A DNA stretch of 33,433 bases from an uncultured Oscillospiraceae bacterium (GCA_964523685.1 CAZGAM010000001.1:5774-39206); one strand, 5' to 3'; positions 4,877 through 26,021 are shown, counted from the stretch's first letter. The notes: generated from the letters alone by a model not told the origin. Program-made: numbers and translations.

Positions 4877-6631
4877 ATGAATATTTTTGATATACTTTCG
4901 CTGGCAGGAGGGCTGAGTCTTTTCCTGTTCGGCATGAACATTATGGGGCAGGCTTTGGAACGCCGGGCAGGCAATAGTCTTCGAACTCTTCTGGGGAAAA
5001 TGACTACCCAGAAAGTGGCAGGTCTGTTGACGGGGCTTGGGATTACGGCGGTCATCCAGAGTTCCTCAGCCACCACGGTAATGGTAGTTGGTTTTGTCAA
5101 TTCGGGGCTGATGACCCTGAAACAGGCAATCAATGTGATTATGGGCGCCAATATTGGCACGACAGTCACCGCCTGGATTCTTTCCCTAGCGGGAATCGAC
5201 AGTGAAAATTTCTTTGTACAGCTGCTCAAACCCAGCTCTTTTACGCCGGCTGTAGCTTTTGTAGGCATTTTGTTTTACATGTTCAGCCGAAACGAAAAGA
5301 AAAAGGATACGGGAATGATATTCCTGGGGTTTGCTACGCTGATGTTTGGCATGGAGACCATGTCGGAATCGGTTGTCGGTTTACAGAACATGCCGCAGTT
5401 CCAGCGCCTGTTCCTCCTCTTCACCAATCCACTGCTCGGTGTCCTGGTGGGCACGCTGCTTACGGCTATCATCCAGTCCAGTTCCGCCTCTGTAGGTATT
5501 TTGCAGGCTCTGGCAGTGACGGGACAGGTCACTTATGGAGCGGCTATTCCCATTATCATGGGTCAGAATATAGGAACCTGCGTTACGGCCATCATCTCCG
5601 CGGTGGGAGCCAACAAGAACGCCAAAAGAGCCGCCATGGTGCATCTGGCCTTCAATGTGATCGGCACGGTTGTATGGCTGACGGTATTTTGCCTGGTAAA
5701 AGCTTTTTTGCACCCTGCAATCCTGAATGAGAAAGCAACTTTATTGGGCATAGCTGCTGTGCATTCCATTTTTAATGTCCTGTGCACAGTCCTGATGCTG
5801 CCTATGAGCGGTATGCTGGAAAAACTGGTCTGTCATCTGGTACCGGATGCGAAAACACCGGAGGGAGAAAGTGAATTAGACGAACGATTGCTACTGACGC
5901 CACCTATTGCCCTGGAGCGATGCCACGAAGTGGTTTCTGATATGGCCCAGTGCGCCCAAGGGGCGATTCGGGACGCTATATCGTCTATTCAGACCTATAA
6001 TCCTGGCATTGCCCGAAAAATTCGAGATGCGGAGGAACGGGCAGATCATTATGAGGACATTCTGGGTACATATCTTGTCAAATTGAGTACCGGTCAGATA
6101 AGCGAAGAGAACAGCAGCGAGGCGGCAGAGCTGCTGAAGGTGATTGGGGACTTTGAGCGAATCAGCGACCACGCCGTGAATATACTGGACTCTGTAGAAG
6201 AGCTGGTGCAGAAGGAAATGTCACTCAGCGAGGATGCCCGGGAGGAGATGGGTGTGCTGACAGCCGCGGTGGTAGAAATCACCGACCTAGCCATGCAGGC
6301 TTTTCTGCACAGTGACACAGCGCTGGCAGAGGATGTAGAACCACTGGAGCAGGTGATAGATTCTTTGAAAGAAACGTGCAGAACGCATCACATTCAGCGG
6401 CTGCAGCAGCAGAAATGCTCTATTTCAGTGGGGTTCGTATGGAACGATCTGCTGACGGATTTGGAGAGAGTGAGTGACCATTGCTCCAATATAGCCGGAT
6501 GTGTGATGGATGCGGCCCTGGGCAACCTAAACGTCCATGAGTCGGTTCGTGCTGTTCGCAGTGACAGGGCGAAATTTACGGAACGATATGAGGCGTTCTT
6601 AAAAAAATACAGTCTGACGACAGCTGTTTAG
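4877..6631 (+). CDS. Na/Pi cotransporter family protein with C-terminal PhoU-like repeats
   Basis: The start is trimmed to ATG 4877 (MNIFDILSLAGGLSLFLFGMNIMGQALE...). Duplicated QSSSATT / QSSSASV transporter motifs are present. The C-terminal half has two PhoU-like helical repeats (ERISDHAVNI, ERVSDHCSNI). The ORF-track start at 4748 overlaps the kinase gene. Confidence 0.9.
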   Translation: MNIFDILSLAGGLSLFLFGMNIMGQALERRAGNSLRTLLGKMTTQKVAGLLTGLGITAVIQSSSATTVMVVGFVNSGLMTLKQAINVIMGANIGTTVTAWILSLAGIDSENFFVQLLKPSSFTPAVAFVGILFYMFSRNEKKKDTGMIFLGFATLMFGMETMSESVVGLQNMPQFQRLFLLFTNPLLGVLVGTLLTAIIQSSSASVGILQALAVTGQVTYGAAIPIIMGQNIGTCVTAIISAVGANKNAKRAAMVHLAFNVIGTVVWLTVFCLVKAFLHPAILNEKATLLGIAAVHSIFNVLCTVLMLPMSGMLEKLVCHLVPDAKTPEGESELDERLLLTPPIALERCHEVVSDMAQCAQGAIRDAISSIQTYNPGIARKIRDAEERADHYEDILGTYLVKLSTGQISEENSSEAAELLKVIGDFERISDHAVNILDSVEELVQKEMSLSEDAREEMGVLTAAVVEITDLAMQAFLHSDTALAEDVEPLEQVIDSLKETCRTHHIQRLQQQKCSISVGFVWNDLLTDLERVSDHCSNIAGCVMDAALGNLNVHESVRAVRSDRAKFTERYEAFLKKYSLTTAV

Positions 6632-21757: not shown

Positions 21758-22675
21758 TTATGTTGGGAGCCGATCCAGCCAGCGGCAGGCGGCCAGAGCA
21801 GCTACAGCGCCGTCGGCTGTGGCGGTGGTCAGCTGGCGAACCTGTTTGGCTCTGCAGTCGCCGGCGGCAAAAACGCCGGGGGTTGTGGTGAGGCAGTCTT
21901 CGCCCGAGGCGGCATAGCCGTCCGCGTCCAGCTGCAGGAGCGAGGAAAAAATATGGTTGTCCGGCACGTGTCCCACCGCCACAAACAGCCCCTCAGCGGG
22001 AAGGGTGAGATGCTGGTCCCCCTGGCGGACCAGGATGCCTTTCAGGTCATGATCTCCTGCCAGGGCCTCTACCGTGGCGGACAGGAGCAGTTTCACGTTA
22101 TCCCGGGAGGATAGGGCCTGTGTCAGCCCGGCATCGGCACGAAAGCTGTCCCGGCGATGGATCACCGTGACCTGGGAGCAGAACCCGGTGAGGTACAGTG
22201 CGTCCTGGACAGCGGTGTTCCCGCCGCCCACTACGGCAACGGACTTGTTTTTGTAGAAGGCCCCGTCGCATACAGCACAATAACTCACTCCGTTTCCCGC
22301 CAGAGAGTCCTCTCTGTCGATTCCCAGTTTTCTGGGCTTGGCACCGGCCGCAGCGATGAGGGCTCTGCAGCGGTATACCGAACCGGATGCCGTATGTACC
22401 AGCTTCCAATCGCCGTCTCTTTCCACGGAAACCGCTTCTTCCAGTTCTGCCTCCGCGCCCTGCGCCATCGCCTGCTCCAGGAACTTATCGGCCAGTTCCA
22501 GGCCGCTTACCGAGAGAAACCCTGGAAAATTCTCTACCTTGGGCGACCAGGCGATCTGCCCGCCGAAAGTGTCTTTTTCCAGGAGTAGAACAGATTTGCC
22601 GGCCCGGCAGGCGTAGGTGGCGGCTGTCAGTCCGGCTGGGCCTCCTCCGATGATCAGTAAGTCAACTGTTTTCAT
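21758..22675 (-). CDS. trxB: Thioredoxin-disulfide reductase
   Basis: The start is trimmed to ATG 22675 (GGAG SD). It has MKTVDLLIIGGGPAGLTAATYACRAG (FAD GxGxxG), the redox-active site VSYCAVCDGAFY, and VVGGGNTAVQDALYL (NADPH site). Confidence 0.9.
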   Translation of the reverse strand: MKTVDLLIIGGGPAGLTAATYACRAGKSVLLLEKDTFGGQIAWSPKVENFPGFLSVSGLELADKFLEQAMAQGAEAELEEAVSVERDGDWKLVHTASGSVYRCRALIAAAGAKPRKLGIDREDSLAGNGVSYCAVCDGAFYKNKSVAVVGGGNTAVQDALYLTGFCSQVTVIHRRDSFRADAGLTQALSSRDNVKLLLSATVEALAGDHDLKGILVRQGDQHLTLPAEGLFVAVGHVPDNHIFSSLLQLDADGYAASGEDCLTTTPGVFAAGDCRAKQVRQLTTATADGAVAALAACRWLDRLPT

Positions 22676-22686
22676 AAAGCATCTCC

Positions 22687-22725
22687 AAAACAGAAAATCA
22701 TCCCGGCAGGAAAAGCCGGGATGAT
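22687..22725 (-). terminator. Strong intrinsic terminator between nrdD and trxB
   Basis: On the minus strand: ATCATCCCGGC, loop TTTTCCT, GCCGGGATGAT (11 perfect bp), then TTTCTGTTTT. The U-tract runs straight into the trxB SD. Confidence 0.75.
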
Positions 22726-22742
22726 CCAATCGGGCAAAAAGT

Positions 22743-25136
22743 TTACGCAATACCGCTGCTCAAGCCAAGGATATACTGTCTGATCGCGCCGGCACCGGCG
22801 TATTTCTCCACATTTCCGTTCTCGTCAATAAGTACCAGGGTGGGGGCCTGTTTTACACCATAGAGCGCTGCCAGGTCCGCATTTTCCTCAGCCATGAGTT
22901 TTTCATAGGCGAAGCCGGCCTTATCCATGGCAGAACAGGCGATCCGGCAGTTGGGACAGGTAGGCGTGGCGAAAAGAAGGGAGCGTGGGATCTGGGGAAT
23001 CTTTTCCGCGTTCTCGGGGGCGTTTTCGTTTGATACGGGAGCCAGAGGTCCCTGATGCTTCAGAACAGAGTTGGCAACCACATATTCCCGGCGTTCCTTA
23101 TACTCCTGCGTCTTCCCGGCGTTCCAGTTTTGAACAGGGCGGTAGTAGCCGGTGATGCGGCTGTATACTTCCGTCTTCTCGCCGCACACCGGGCAAATGA
23201 ACTGCTCTCCCGTCAGATAGCCGTGATTCTTGCAGACAGAATACGTCGGAGACAAGGTGTAATAGGGCAGACGGTAGTTTTCGGCGATCTTGCGCACCAG
23301 GTTGGCGGCAGCTTCCCAGTCTGGCAGCTTTTCCCCGAGAAAAGCGTGGAACACCGTGCCGGAGGTATAACGGGTCTGGAGATCGTCCTGGATATCCAGC
23401 GCATCGAAGATGTCTTCCGTATAGCCCACAGGCAGATGGGAACTGTTGGTGTAATAGGGGGTGCCACCCGGCTCGGCTGCGGTAATGATATCCGGATAAA
23501 TTTCCACATCATGTTTGGCCAAGCGATACGCGGTAGATTCGGCAGGGGTGGCCTCCAGGTTGTAGAGATCGCCATATTGCTCCTGGTAGTCCTTCAGACG
23601 CTCCCGCATATGATCCAACACCTGTTTGGTGAACTGCTGGCACTTGGGACTGGTCATATCGGCCCGGATCCACTTGGCGTTGAGTCCCGCCTCGTTCATG
23701 CCCACCAGGCCAATGGTGGAGAAGTGATTGTCAAAACTTCCCAGATAATGCTTCGTGTAGGGGTACAGTCCTGCGTCCAGAAGTTTGGTGATCACATCCC
23801 GTTTGATTTTCAGGGAGCGTGCGGCCAGATCCATGAGCTTGTCCAGACGGACATAGAAATCTTTTTCATCCGTGGCAAGATACGCCAGACGGGGCATATT
23901 CAGGGTTACAACACCCACCGAGCCGGTGCTCTCCCCGGAGCCGAAGAAACCACCAGATTTTCTGCGCAGTTCCCGCAGATCCAGGCGGAGGCGGCAGCAC
24001 ATGGAGCGCACATCAGACGGTTCCATATCGGAGTTGATATAATTGGAGAAATAGGGAGTACCGTATTTGGCGGTCATCTCAAAGAGCATTTTATTATTTT
24101 CTGTGGCGGACCAGTCAAAGTCCTTGGTGATGGAATAAGTGGGGATGGGATACTGGAAACCGCGGCCGTTGGCATCGCCGCTGATCATAATATCAATGAA
24201 GGCCTTGTTGACGATGTCCATCTCCGGCTTGCAGTCGCCATAGGTGAAATCCATCTCCCTGCCGCCCACAATCGCGGGCAGATCCTTCAGATCATCCGGG
24301 ACCGTCCAGTCCAGGGTGATATTGGAGAACGGTGCCTGTGTACCCCAGCGGGATGGAGTATTCACGCCGAAGACGAAGGACTGGATGCACTGTTTGACCT
24401 CTTTATAGCTTAAATTGTCCACCTTGACAAAGGGAGCCAGATAGGTGTCAAAAGAGGAGAAAGCCTGGGCACCGGCCCACTCGTTCTGCATGATGCCCAG
24501 GAAATTGACCATCTGGTTGCAGAGCGTGGAGAGATGGCTTGCCGGGGCAGAATTGATTTTGCCTGGGATGCCCAGCCCCTCCTGGATGAGCTGCTTCAGA
24601 CTCCAGCCGGCACAATATCCGGTGAGCATGGACAAATCGTGCAAATGCAGATCGCAGTTGCGGTGGGCGTCGGCAATGGCCTGATCGTAAATTTCACTGA
24701 GCCAGTAGTTGGCTGTGACGGCGCCGGAATTGGAGAGGATCAAGCCTCCCACAGAGTAGGTGACCGTGGAATTCTCCTTTACCCGCCAGTCCTGCACATT
24801 CAAATATTTGTCTACCGTCTCCTTATAATCCAAAAAAGTGGATTTCACATTCCGCAGATTTTCTCTCTGCTTGCGGTAGAGAATATAGGCCTTGGCGACG
24901 GTCTCATACCCGCCGCGGGAAAGGACCGCTTCTACACTGTCCTGTATATCTTCGACAGCCACAAGGCTGTTTCGGATCTTAGCCTGAAAGTCTGCCGTAA
25001 CTTTCAGCGCCAGAAAATCAATGACACTCTCATTGTAATCGGTTTGCGTGGCCTCAAAGGCCTTCTTGATGGCTCCAGCGATTTTACTGATATCAAAGTC
25101 GACGATGGTTCCGTCGCGCTTTGTTACCTGATACAT
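22743..25136 (-). CDS. nrdD: Anaerobic ribonucleoside-triphosphate reductase (class III) with a C-terminal thioredoxin-fold extension
   Basis: 797 aa. The N-terminus is an ATP-cone (MYQVTKRDGTIVDFDISKIAGAIKKAF...). The NrdD core follows, with a Zn-ribbon (CKNHGY...CPVCG) and the glycyl-radical motif SRITGYYRPVQNWNAGK. A further roughly 112 aa end in a Trx fold (LLFATPTCPNCRIA...KQAPTLVLI). Confidence 0.93.
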   Translation of the reverse strand: MYQVTKRDGTIVDFDISKIAGAIKKAFEATQTDYNESVIDFLALKVTADFQAKIRNSLVAVEDIQDSVEAVLSRGGYETVAKAYILYRKQRENLRNVKSTFLDYKETVDKYLNVQDWRVKENSTVTYSVGGLILSNSGAVTANYWLSEIYDQAIADAHRNCDLHLHDLSMLTGYCAGWSLKQLIQEGLGIPGKINSAPASHLSTLCNQMVNFLGIMQNEWAGAQAFSSFDTYLAPFVKVDNLSYKEVKQCIQSFVFGVNTPSRWGTQAPFSNITLDWTVPDDLKDLPAIVGGREMDFTYGDCKPEMDIVNKAFIDIMISGDANGRGFQYPIPTYSITKDFDWSATENNKMLFEMTAKYGTPYFSNYINSDMEPSDVRSMCCRLRLDLRELRRKSGGFFGSGESTGSVGVVTLNMPRLAYLATDEKDFYVRLDKLMDLAARSLKIKRDVITKLLDAGLYPYTKHYLGSFDNHFSTIGLVGMNEAGLNAKWIRADMTSPKCQQFTKQVLDHMRERLKDYQEQYGDLYNLEATPAESTAYRLAKHDVEIYPDIITAAEPGGTPYYTNSSHLPVGYTEDIFDALDIQDDLQTRYTSGTVFHAFLGEKLPDWEAAANLVRKIAENYRLPYYTLSPTYSVCKNHGYLTGEQFICPVCGEKTEVYSRITGYYRPVQNWNAGKTQEYKERREYVVANSVLKHQGPLAPVSNENAPENAEKIPQIPRSLLFATPTCPNCRIACSAMDKAGFAYEKLMAEENADLAALYGVKQAPTLVLIDENGNVEKYAGAGAIRQYILGLSSGIA

Positions 25137-25178: not shown

Positions 25179-25883
25179 TCATATGCCTCTCACCTGTACG
25201 CAGGGCACATAGGGCTCCACGGCTTTGGCGAGATCTCTCATTTCCTGTTCATTGTAGGCGGACAGACCTTCGATGCGGATGATATTGCCGGAATCCTTGA
25301 ACTGCTGCAGATAGTATGCCCGGGCCCCGTGAATCCATTTGGCCGCGTCTATAAGACTTTCCCTGGAGTGGAGTCCCCGCACTACCGTAGTGCGGAACTC
25401 GTAGTCGATCTTTCCGGAGAGAAGAAAGTCCTTAGACCGTTCAACAGCGGCCATGTCCAGGTCCGCCGTACCCGCGGTTTCCCGGTACAGGGCGGGGGCA
25501 TTTTTTATATCCATAGCGACCCGGTCCACCAGATTGTCCCGCACCAGGTCCCTGAGCATGTCCGGGAAACATCCATTGGTGTCCAGCTTGATTTTATAGC
25601 CCAGGGAGCGAATTTTTGCCAGAAAAATTCCGATGTCTTTCTGCATCAGGGGTTCTCCACCGGAGACAGCGACTGCATCAAGAATACCGCGGCGTTTTTT
25701 CAGAAACGCCAGGACATCCTCTTCCCCAAGCTGGGGAAAGGGGGTGATGCCGGGGAGGACAAGAGGCGCATTATGGCAGAAAGGGCATCGAAAATTGCAT
25801 CCACAGGTAAAAACGGTGCAGGCCACCTGCCCCGGATAATCCAAAAGGGTGAGCTTCTGCAGACCGGCTAGTTGCATGTCCAT
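25179..25883 (-). CDS. nrdG: Anaerobic RNR activating protein (radical SAM)
   Basis: 234 aa. GLQKLTLLDYPGQVACTVFTCGCNFRCPFCHN is the CxxxCxxC cluster. The start could be ATG 25877 instead, which has better spacing from GGAGG. Confidence 0.9.
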   Translation of the reverse strand: MDMQLAGLQKLTLLDYPGQVACTVFTCGCNFRCPFCHNAPLVLPGITPFPQLGEEDVLAFLKKRRGILDAVAVSGGEPLMQKDIGIFLAKIRSLGYKIKLDTNGCFPDMLRDLVRDNLVDRVAMDIKNAPALYRETAGTADLDMAAVERSKDFLLSGKIDYEFRTTVVRGLHSRESLIDAAKWIHGARAYYLQQFKDSGNIIRIEGLSAYNEQEMRDLAKAVEPYVPCVQVRGI

Positions 25884-25924: not shown

Positions 25925-25953
25925 ATAATAAAGCAATTCCGGGTTCTTGTCAA
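25925..25953 (-). promoter_or_regulatory. Putative nrdG-nrdD promoter
   Basis: On the minus strand: TTGACA (25948-25953), a 17-nt spacer, then TATTAT (25925-25930). Confidence 0.55.
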
Positions 25954-25963
25954 TAGAGAATTC

Positions 25964-25979
25964 ACACAAGATATAGGAA
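25964..25979. promoter_or_regulatory. Candidate NrdR box 1
   Basis: ACACAAGATATAGGAA matches about 12 of 16 positions of the NrdR consensus acaCwAtATaTwGtgt as I recall it. It sits just upstream of the -35. Confidence 0.35.
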
Positions 25980-26005: not shown

Positions 26006-26021
26006 GCACAAAATATAGAAA
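26006..26021. promoter_or_regulatory. Candidate NrdR box 2
   Basis: GCACAAAATATAGAAA matches about 11 of 16 positions. It shares the 12-mer CACAAnATATAG with box 1 and lies exactly 42 bp (4 helical turns) away. Confidence 0.3.

Follow-up and report, generated by a model that had tools for sequence, protein, structure and literature searches.

A class III ribonucleotide reductase (RNR) that carries a thioredoxin-fold redoxin on a C-terminal tether is encoded beside a thioredoxin reductase gene in a 33,433-nt stretch of DNA from an uncultured Oscillospiraceae bacterium (GCA_964523685.1 CAZGAM010000001.1:5774-39206; hereafter the window, to whose full length all positions refer). The host genome is an 88.6%-complete metagenome-assembled genome (MAG). 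Three consecutive minus-strand genes encode the activase NrdG, the reductase NrdD and the thioredoxin reductase TrxB, and the locus is set apart by the domain architecture of NrdD, its conserved residues, a single origin of the fusion and a specific linkage to trxB. We estimate a probability of about 0.65 that this locus is a self-contained, thiol-driven class III RNR module, nrdG - nrdD::trx - trxB, in which the redoxin tail re-reduces the active-site disulfide and TrxB recharges the tail with NADPH. The tethered-redoxin class III RNR as such is real, conserved and barely described, and it is common in gut Firmicutes.

NrdD displays the NRDD barrel, the RxxGY motif with a Zn-binding ribbon and the neighbouring NrdG that characterize a class III RNR. 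The Pfam NRDD model (PF13597) is covered over profile positions 1-562 of 562, and NCBIfam NF006126 (residues 1-686; 1124 bits, cut-off 548) and TIGR02487 (500 bits, cut-off 326) likewise recognize the protein. These family models end at residue 686, and the frame continues for 111 residues further; the interval 22743-23081 comprises the nrdD stop and the last 112 codons. An earlier note, made from the sequence alone, had described an extension of about 112 aa past the glycyl-radical motif (YSRITGYYRP) and had considered that it might prove to be a separate gene fused by a frameshift. The extension lies in the same open frame as the core, and every string quoted in that note is present: the linker reads VVANSVLKHQGPLAPVSNENAPENAEKIPQIPRS and is followed by LLFATPTCPNC...KQAPTLV.

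The fusion is not a frameshift artefact. Across 22600-23400, Logan contigs from three faecal metagenome runs contain no indel, and their sole difference from the window, G23039A, gives P700S in the linker. More than 100 protein clusters of 785-816 aa show 65-71% identity over residues 640-797. We then drew on two partly overlapping samples of fused loci, 40 at class level, taken from the class's other families, and 80 from named species. In all 40 class-level loci the nrdD frame runs on uninterrupted to a CxxC domain. A tblastn search with the tail recovered 39 of these, and the one that it missed, L037, encodes a tail with a CAKC redoxin motif. Of the 80 named-species loci, 78 have the fusion in frame, the two exceptions having no detectable NrdD core 5' of the tail: one (L123) has only 256 nt upstream and the other (L108) is a free-standing copy, described below.

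The phylogenetic survey that the earlier note had proposed detected the tail within the window's family in 67 of 201 genomes, or 52 of 134 genera, and within its class in 76 of 400 sampled genomes, or 49 of 217 genera. The tail nearly always sits within an open frame of 785-870 aa. A single-tail query against species-representative genomes yielded at least 450 confirmed stretches among at least 600 matched. Named carriers include Faecalicatena contorta, F. orotica, F. fissicatena, Pseudoflavonifractor phocaeensis, Longicatena caecimuris, Acetobacterium malicum and [Eubacterium] hominis, and further carriers are MAGs labelled Christensenellales, Erysipelotrichaceae, Acidaminococcaceae and Bacilli. 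A search of the class with the NrdD core resolved two clearly distinct groups, one of at least 70% identity to the query that is nearly all fused, and one of ~48-55% identity and ~700 aa that is unfused. In a maximum-likelihood tree of 61 cores, all fused sequences fall into one clade with 100/100 support, indicating that the fusion has been kept across many families. Three unfused sequences nest within the fused clade, next to L038, which suggests one gain of the tail and one secondary loss. Four sampled genomes hold fused and unfused NrdD together.

Several loci depart from the usual arrangement. Three NrdDs that are 72-75% identical to the window core (L067, L068 and L069, from genomes G593, G548 and G309) end at ~690 aa, just past the core, and have no trxB nearby. 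Free-standing tail homologues beside unfused nrdD were discarded as 'Rosetta stone' evidence, most short matches being C-terminal fragments of fused NrdD. One supposed case (L009) proved to be a fused gene with two frameshifts, and in another (L008) the overlapping open reading frame (ORF) is equally explained by a single indel. A small redoxin ORF was found beside unfused nrdD at 1 of 20 loci (L052, in genome G307); it lies at ~5859-6101 on the minus strand directly upstream of nrdD, matches the tail profile at E = 4e-8 and represents a free-standing operon version of the partnership. In Anaerostipes hominis BG01, a free-standing 115-aa redoxin copy (L108:2893-3240, plus strand) is flanked by an unrelated 252-aa ORF on one side and two ribosomal-protein-like ORFs on the other; its N terminus, RKLYDPKNSVLK, resembles the core-linker junction of NrdD, suggesting a copy detached from a fused gene. 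A record from human faeces labelled 'Bacteriophage sp.' and UNVERIFIED (L150; MT835493.1 43931-51137) contains the full nrdG - nrdD::trx - trxB cassette with an NrdD core 79% identical to that of the window; the record represents either a copy carried by a phage or bacterial DNA deposited under a phage name.

Profile searches and structure prediction describe the tail as a minimal, ~80-residue thioredoxin-fold redoxin on a ~31-residue tether that is predicted to be disordered, in agreement with the Trx/Grx-like fold, TCPNC motif and cis-Pro-like APT noted earlier. Scanned alone, the tail matches Pfam Thioredoxin at 26.5 bits (gathering score 23.5). All 45 aligned tails match the Pfam Glutaredoxin and/or Thioredoxin models, the Glutaredoxin match being weak throughout (best 2.9e-11). 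A profile built from these 45 tails retrieves redoxins from the PDB at E = 1e-12 to 1e-7; the best matches are the C-terminal unit of protein disulfide oxidoreductase (PDO; 'glutaredoxin-like protein') and M. jannaschii thioredoxin, with NrdH structures at ~1e-7. AlphaFold models the tail alone with a predicted local distance difference test score (pLDDT) of 94.2 and a beta-alpha-beta-alpha-beta-beta-alpha topology (four strands, three helices), in which C727 and C730 mark the N-terminal end of helix 1 (728-740) and P765 immediately precedes strand 3 (766-770). Foldseek comparison of the tail with the PDB returns thioredoxins (probability 1.0, TMq 0.7-0.78). In the full-length AlphaFold model (overall pLDDT 72.9), the tail scores ~90 and the linker falls below 50. 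C727, C730 and P765 are invariant in 48 full-length fused relatives that share 65-87% identity overall, and the linker differs so freely in length and sequence that it is not alignable; invariant tail residues on a freely varying linker are the pattern expected of a functional tethered domain.

The tail carries the diagnostic motifs of none of the familiar redoxin families. It resembles small archaeal and thermophile thioredoxins and related proteins, namely the C-terminal unit of PDO/'glutaredoxin-like protein' (PDB 2ywm, 2ayt, 1j08, 1a8l), the M. jannaschii thioredoxin (1fo5) and NrdH (4hs1/1r7h) in its ~80 residues, minimal Trx fold, CxxC motif and cis-Pro, but it has CPNC rather than CPYC, CQYC or CVQC and is tethered rather than free-standing. 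Traits of canonical TrxA are missing, the tail having TCPNC in place of WCGPC and ~80 aa in place of ~105 aa with an extra N-terminal beta-alpha unit; TIGR01068 gives 22.4 bits, below its cut-off of 96.8, and the CPYC motif of Grx and the CVQC and WSGFRP motifs of NrdH are absent from the sequence. We dropped a classification as Grx, NrdH or Trx, given that sequence profiles favour PDO/mini-Trx/NrdH, Foldseek favours thioredoxins and no diagnostic motif fits. Judged by its sequence, the tail appears to be a thioredoxin-fold mini-redoxin of a family of its own, located almost only at the NrdD C terminus. Both PDO-type and NrdH proteins are substrates of TrxR-type reductases.

Variants of the tether and tail occur among relatives. 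The linkers of L017, L021, L024, L025, L044, L046, L048 and L049 hold extra Cys motifs (CCCC, CGCC and CxC in the forms CVC, CAC, CGC and CNC) that recall the C-terminal shuttle Cys pairs of class I/II RNRs; the window linker contains no Cys. One match from the representative library (P0126) has two tandem redoxin copies with repeated linkers between them. In P0145, a redoxin domain follows a truncated TrxB N-terminal half (255 aa), possibly an assembly chimera, and P0187 is an unrelated 877-aa protein with a degenerate C-terminal redoxin copy that has lost the first Cys.

The gene directly downstream is trxB, as the earlier note had recognized from its CAVC motif. Its product also has GGGPAG, and the FAD/NADPH Rossmann, CxxC and HRRxxxR 2'-phosphate motifs are all present; CAVC, GGGNTA and HRRDSFR together indicate that the enzyme should use NADPH. 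It is a divergent TrxB, scoring 323.5 bits against TIGR01292, slightly below the cut-off of 343.45, in an alignment that is full-length (2-300 of 300). It is the only canonical NADPH-type TrxB (HRRDSFR) detected in the MAG. Using tblastn with the window TrxB, we found trxB directly 3' of fused nrdD in 20 of 40 class-level loci and, at a distance of 0-353 nt, in 42 of 80 named-species loci, across many families. By comparison, no trxB was found within ~3.5 kb of unfused nrdD at 20 loci of the same class (20/40 versus 0/20, Fisher p = 3.5e-5). nrdG adjoins nrdD in most loci, fused and unfused alike. The chain NADPH -> TrxB -> Trx-domain -> NrdD that the earlier note had put forward thereby gains comparative support from the adjacency of trxB to fused rather than unfused nrdD; its chemical steps keep the standing of a proposal.

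Elsewhere in the genome, a second TrxR-like gene (C28:9845-10756, minus strand) has CATC and is without the GGGNxA and HRRxxxR NADPH motifs. A thioredoxin with an unusual WCTPC site (C28:5014-5433, minus strand) lies ~4.4 kb from it, and the pair could form a pyridine-nucleotide-independent (ferredoxin-type) system.

The NrdD core carries what alignment suggests is a thiol-type active-site signature, consisting of C175, a double-Cys finger loop and E528. The finger-loop string SMCCRLRLD singled out by the earlier note is present and contributes C380 and C381. Residues C175, M379-R382, E528, C635, C648, C651 and G663 are invariant in the 48 fused relatives, and H638 is conserved in at least 90% of them. 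E528 falls in the column of T. maritima E495 and N. bacilliformis E438, which in formate-type enzymes is occupied by Tyr (T4 and S. thermophilus NrdD) or Leu (P. copri NrdD). The finger loop of P. copri NrdD aligns as MGCR, and that of T4 NrdD is MGCR with a single Cys (PMC4493059). The subtype alignment that the earlier note had suggested thus places the window NrdD outside the formate class: it has no single-Cys MGCR loop, and it has a Glu that this class is without.

More precisely, the protein belongs to none of the three subtypes as strictly defined. It is not NrdD1, having MCCR and E528 instead of MGCR and no Glu. It is not NrdD3, whose motif is QCCR/A with neither Met nor Glu (PMC9669993), as Met379 and Glu528 are both present. 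Nor is it NrdD2 in the strict sense; the double Cys and the Glu are there, and the loop is MCCR rather than the Met-less SCCR. We took the meaning of formate-type versus thiol-type motifs from three papers (PMC9669993, PMC4390871, PMC11226230). According to two of these, in the thiol-based turnover of N. bacilliformis the second finger-loop Cys forms a disulfide with the beta-A Cys, and Glu acts as base (PMC9669993, PMC4390871). Burnim et al. 2022, in a family-wide analysis, place 83% of the double-Cys class III sequences in the MCCR group; they assign this group no reductant and consider its members capable, in principle, of using either one (PMC9669993).

Each chemical step of the proposed module, the direction of electron flow and the access of the tail would, by analogy, follow the chemistry of relatives. 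NrdG would form a glycyl radical on G663, and the radical would move to a finger-loop Cys (C380 or C381), at which point reduction of the nucleoside triphosphate would begin. C175 and the second finger-loop Cys would then give two electrons to form a disulfide, with E528 as the base, a scheme modelled on the N. bacilliformis enzyme. The tethered Trx-fold tail would reduce this active-site disulfide by thiol-disulfide exchange, C727 attacking and C730 resolving, and the oxidised tail would be recharged by the adjoining TrxB with NADPH. In extended form, the ~31-residue linker could span ~100 Å, which would bring either subunit of the dimer within reach. For the tail to gain access, the Cys-Cys loop may have to swing out of the barrel. 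Crystal structures of T. maritima NrdD show such a state, with the Cys-Cys motif carried beyond the barrel by an extended loop (PMC4493059), and this position suggests one access route for a protein reductant. A fused redoxin acting in this manner also has a precedent that counts in favour of the tethered-redoxin reading, the Grx fused to NrdB of Facklamia ignava being a working RNR reductant (Rozman Grinberg et al. 2018; PMC6187632). That protein (Grx::ATP-cone::NrdB) resembles the window fusion in joining a small redoxin domain to an RNR polypeptide, but there a class I enzyme bears the redoxin at the N terminus of its radical-generating subunit and depends on glutathione, whereas the window fusion is class III and C-terminal.

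Several observations weigh against thiol-driven turnover by a self-contained module. About half of the fused loci are without an adjacent trxB. In the window itself, a terminator-like hairpin lies within the 67-nt gap that separates the nrdD stop from the trxB start, with the GGAG and ATG of trxB immediately after it, and co-transcription is not assured. No promoter-like site was found in this gap, and together with the hairpin this suggests that trxB is probably expressed by partial read-through, which would yield less reductase than reductase substrate. The full-length model has low confidence at the finger loop and glycyl loop, both below a pLDDT of 50. The 20 sampled unfused relatives of the same class share C175, MCCR, E528 and the glycyl-loop Gly, have no linked trxB and have a linked redoxin in only the 1 case among 20; the active site alone therefore demands no dedicated reductant. 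Met379 is retained in the finger loop, and its E. coli counterpart participates in formate-dependent chemistry (PMC9669993). Finally, PFL occurs in 46 of 76 fusion genomes versus 204 of 324 other genomes of the class (p = 0.69), such that the fusion does not track the absence of formate, and we dropped PFL absence as general support for formate independence. For the host itself, searches of the 88.6%-complete MAG gave no match to PFL (PF02901) or to a class I/II RNR large subunit, and the class III NrdD is the only RNR found there.

Two other roles for the tail merit consideration. In the first, which we regard as unlikely, the tail would be a maintenance or activation factor that keeps C635/C648/C651 or the active-site Cys reduced so that NrdG can install the radical, for example after brief exposure to oxygen, and turnover would proceed with formate or free thioredoxin. 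Thioredoxin has an activation role of this kind for the E. coli enzyme (PMC4390871), and the position of the tail would suit it, beginning ~25 residues past the glycyl-radical loop and ~35 past the Zn site. The retained Met379, the frequency of PFL in fusion genomes and the separate canonical-length thioredoxin of this genome point the same way. However, a 1:1 tethered redoxin with a dedicated NADPH reductase gene would be a heavy investment for occasional repair, two residues that are invariant in the clade, the second finger-loop Cys and E528, are associated with thiol-based turnover in N. bacilliformis (PMC9669993), and no PFL was found in the window's own genome.

The second role, to our minds equally improbable, is that of a back-up: formate would be the main reductant, acting through a C175-M379 pair as in E. 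coli, and the tethered redoxin with TrxB would take over when formate is scarce. The MCCR loop holds elements of both mechanisms (PMC9669993), which together with the 46 PFL-containing fusion genomes and the four genomes that combine fused and unfused NrdD is consistent with a dual supply. Against this stand E528, placed where formate would be the base in formate-type enzymes, which have Tyr or Leu there (for the roles of Glu and formate, see PMC4390871), and a host genome with no detected PFL or other RNR. It could also be supposed that the fusion is a product of misassembly or of a frameshift error, or that nrdD has recently and by accident come to read through into a separate redoxin gene that plays no part in RNR. 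The early nrdD stop and overlapping 79-aa redoxin ORF of L008 and the Logan contig (L009) broken by two frameshifts lend this idea a little colour, but it is ruled out by junctions free of indels in contigs from three samples, by in-frame relatives (78 of the 80 named-species loci), by a tree with a single origin retained across many families and by invariant catalytic residues in the tail, and we give it almost no credence.

A broader reading is one that we advance tentatively as possible rather than probable: the MCCR-plus-Glu lineage in general might run on protein dithiols (Trx-type redoxins with TrxB/NADPH) and not on formate, with the fusion as its 'Rosetta stone'. If this were true, a finger-loop Met would not be diagnostic of formate chemistry, and unfused members with C175, MCCR and E528 would use free thioredoxin.

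Many strict anaerobes, among them a large part of the gut microbiota, make DNA precursors through class III RNR alone. Electron donors are settled for few of these enzymes: formate for those of E. coli, T4 and P. copri, thioredoxin for that of N. bacilliformis and an NrdH-like redoxin for that of Methanosarcina. A thioredoxin-driven class III RNR was reportedly described by Wei et al. in 2014. The window enzyme resembles NrdD2 (N. bacilliformis; T. maritima, PDB 4coi/4u3e) in being a glycyl-radical RNR with an adjacent finger-loop Cys pair, a beta-A Cys and an active-site Glu; NrdD2 takes its electrons from a thioredoxin-type protein, which thioredoxin reductase regenerates with NAD(P)H. NrdD2 has SCCR without Met and a free redoxin, whereas the window clade has MCCR, a tethered redoxin, a dedicated trxB beside it and an ATP-cone; identity to T. 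maritima NrdD is low (phmmer E = 7.5e-41 over residues 155-684). A Methanosarcina-type NrdD3 with an operon-encoded NrdH-like redoxin is said to have been reported by Wei et al. in 2015. It shares with the window locus a dedicated small redoxin genetically linked to a class III RNR, but there the redoxin is separate and is recharged by ferredoxin:disulfide reductase rather than NADPH-TrxB, and the motif is QCCR/A.

The closest published trace of a redoxin on NrdD is one Grx:NrdD entry in a RefSeq list of Grx-RNR fusions, from Lachnospiraceae bacterium TWA4 (WP_082039398.1, subclass NrdDd; PMC6187632). This is a one-line listing that describes no position, distribution or trxB link. Apart from this 2018 listing, the text available to our full-text search of the RNR and glycyl-radical-enzyme literature, including the 2022 family analyses, a 2024 P. 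copri study and a 2026 review, held no description of a C-terminal redoxin on NrdD, its spread or its trxB link. NCBI names the fused proteins 'ribonucleoside triphosphate reductase'.

A redoxin joined to NrdD, often with an NADPH reductase adjacent, is a strong and testable pointer to the donor of MCCR enzymes, and NrdG, NrdD-Trx and TrxB form a three-protein system that could be reconstituted from cultured Faecalicatena or Pseudoflavonifractor. If the module operates as proposed, the supply of deoxynucleoside triphosphates in these anaerobes would be tied to the NADPH pool and not to formate metabolism, with consequences for how gut anaerobe physiology is modelled and for efforts to target anaerobic RNRs.

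The features of the locus are collected in the table. NrdG has the motif CNFRCPFC at residue 29, and its gene lies 42 nt upstream of nrdD. The NrdD Zn-ribbon comprises three Cys and one His, and the His is conserved among fused and unfused relatives; the Zn site of phage T4 NrdD has four cysteines.

Table. Coordinates of the nrdG - nrdD::trx - trxB locus and its predicted elements.
Feature	Position	Strand	Details and basis
Direct repeat of CTATATYTTGTG, two copies at a spacing of 42 bp	25965-25976 and 26007-26018	-	A short way 5' of the -35 hexamer; 0.02 expected by chance
Sigma-70-like promoter before nrdG, TTGACA-17-TATTAT	25925..25953	-	Candidate from consensus match only, 11 of 12 positions
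nrdG, radical-SAM activase of class III RNR	25179..25883	-	234 aa; TIGR02495 NrdG2, 200 bits (cut-off 131); Pfam Radical_SAM
nrdD, entire fused gene	22743..25136	-	797 aa and stop, one open frame
ATP-cone, allosteric on/off domain, NrdD residues 3-92	24861..25130	-	Pfam PF03477, 76.5 bits
Class III RNR catalytic core and glycyl-radical domain, residues 121-685	23082..24776	-	Pfam NRDD PF13597, 7e-188
Active-site C175	24612-24614	-	Equivalent to T. maritima C125; sequence alignment
Finger loop M379-C380-C381-R382	23991-24002	-	Equivalent to T. maritima S328-C-C-R331 (C380-C381 to C329-C330); sequence alignment
Active-site E528, in NLEATPAE	23553-23555	-	Equivalent to T. maritima E495, in NIEQVPAE; sequence alignment only, no superposition
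Zn site C635-x2-H638 ... C648-x2-C651 (residues 635-651)	23184-23232	-	Beside the glycyl loop
Glycyl-radical residue G663	23148-23150	-	
Flexible linker, residues 687-717	22986..23078	-	31 residues; pLDDT <50 at residues 701-715
Thioredoxin-fold redoxin domain, residues 718-797	22746..22985	-	80 residues; Pfam, profile search, AlphaFold, Foldseek
CPNC, C727-C730	22947-22958	-	
cis-Pro P765	22842-22844	-	
Terminator-like hairpin, 13-bp perfect stem and U-rich tract	22695..22727	-	RNA fold -27.3 kcal/mol, z = -3.96
trxB, low-molecular-weight thioredoxin reductase	21758..22675	-	305 aa; TIGR01292; Pfam Pyr_redox_2, E = 6.7e-44
CAVC of TrxB	22268-22279	-	Motif reading
GGGNTA of TrxB	22211-22228	-	Motif reading
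HRRDSFR (NADPH) of TrxB	22139-22159	-	Motif reading

Upstream of nrdG, the paired copies of CTATATYTTGTG form a candidate operator that resembles the right half of an NrdR box. The full NrdR-box consensus had no match within 3 mismatches anywhere in the window, and an Rfam scan of the window returned no RNA family. The genome contains two NrdR genes (C9:7363-7803 and C114:950-1384), and the same 12-mer also lies upstream of nrd genes in two relatives (L013 and L032).

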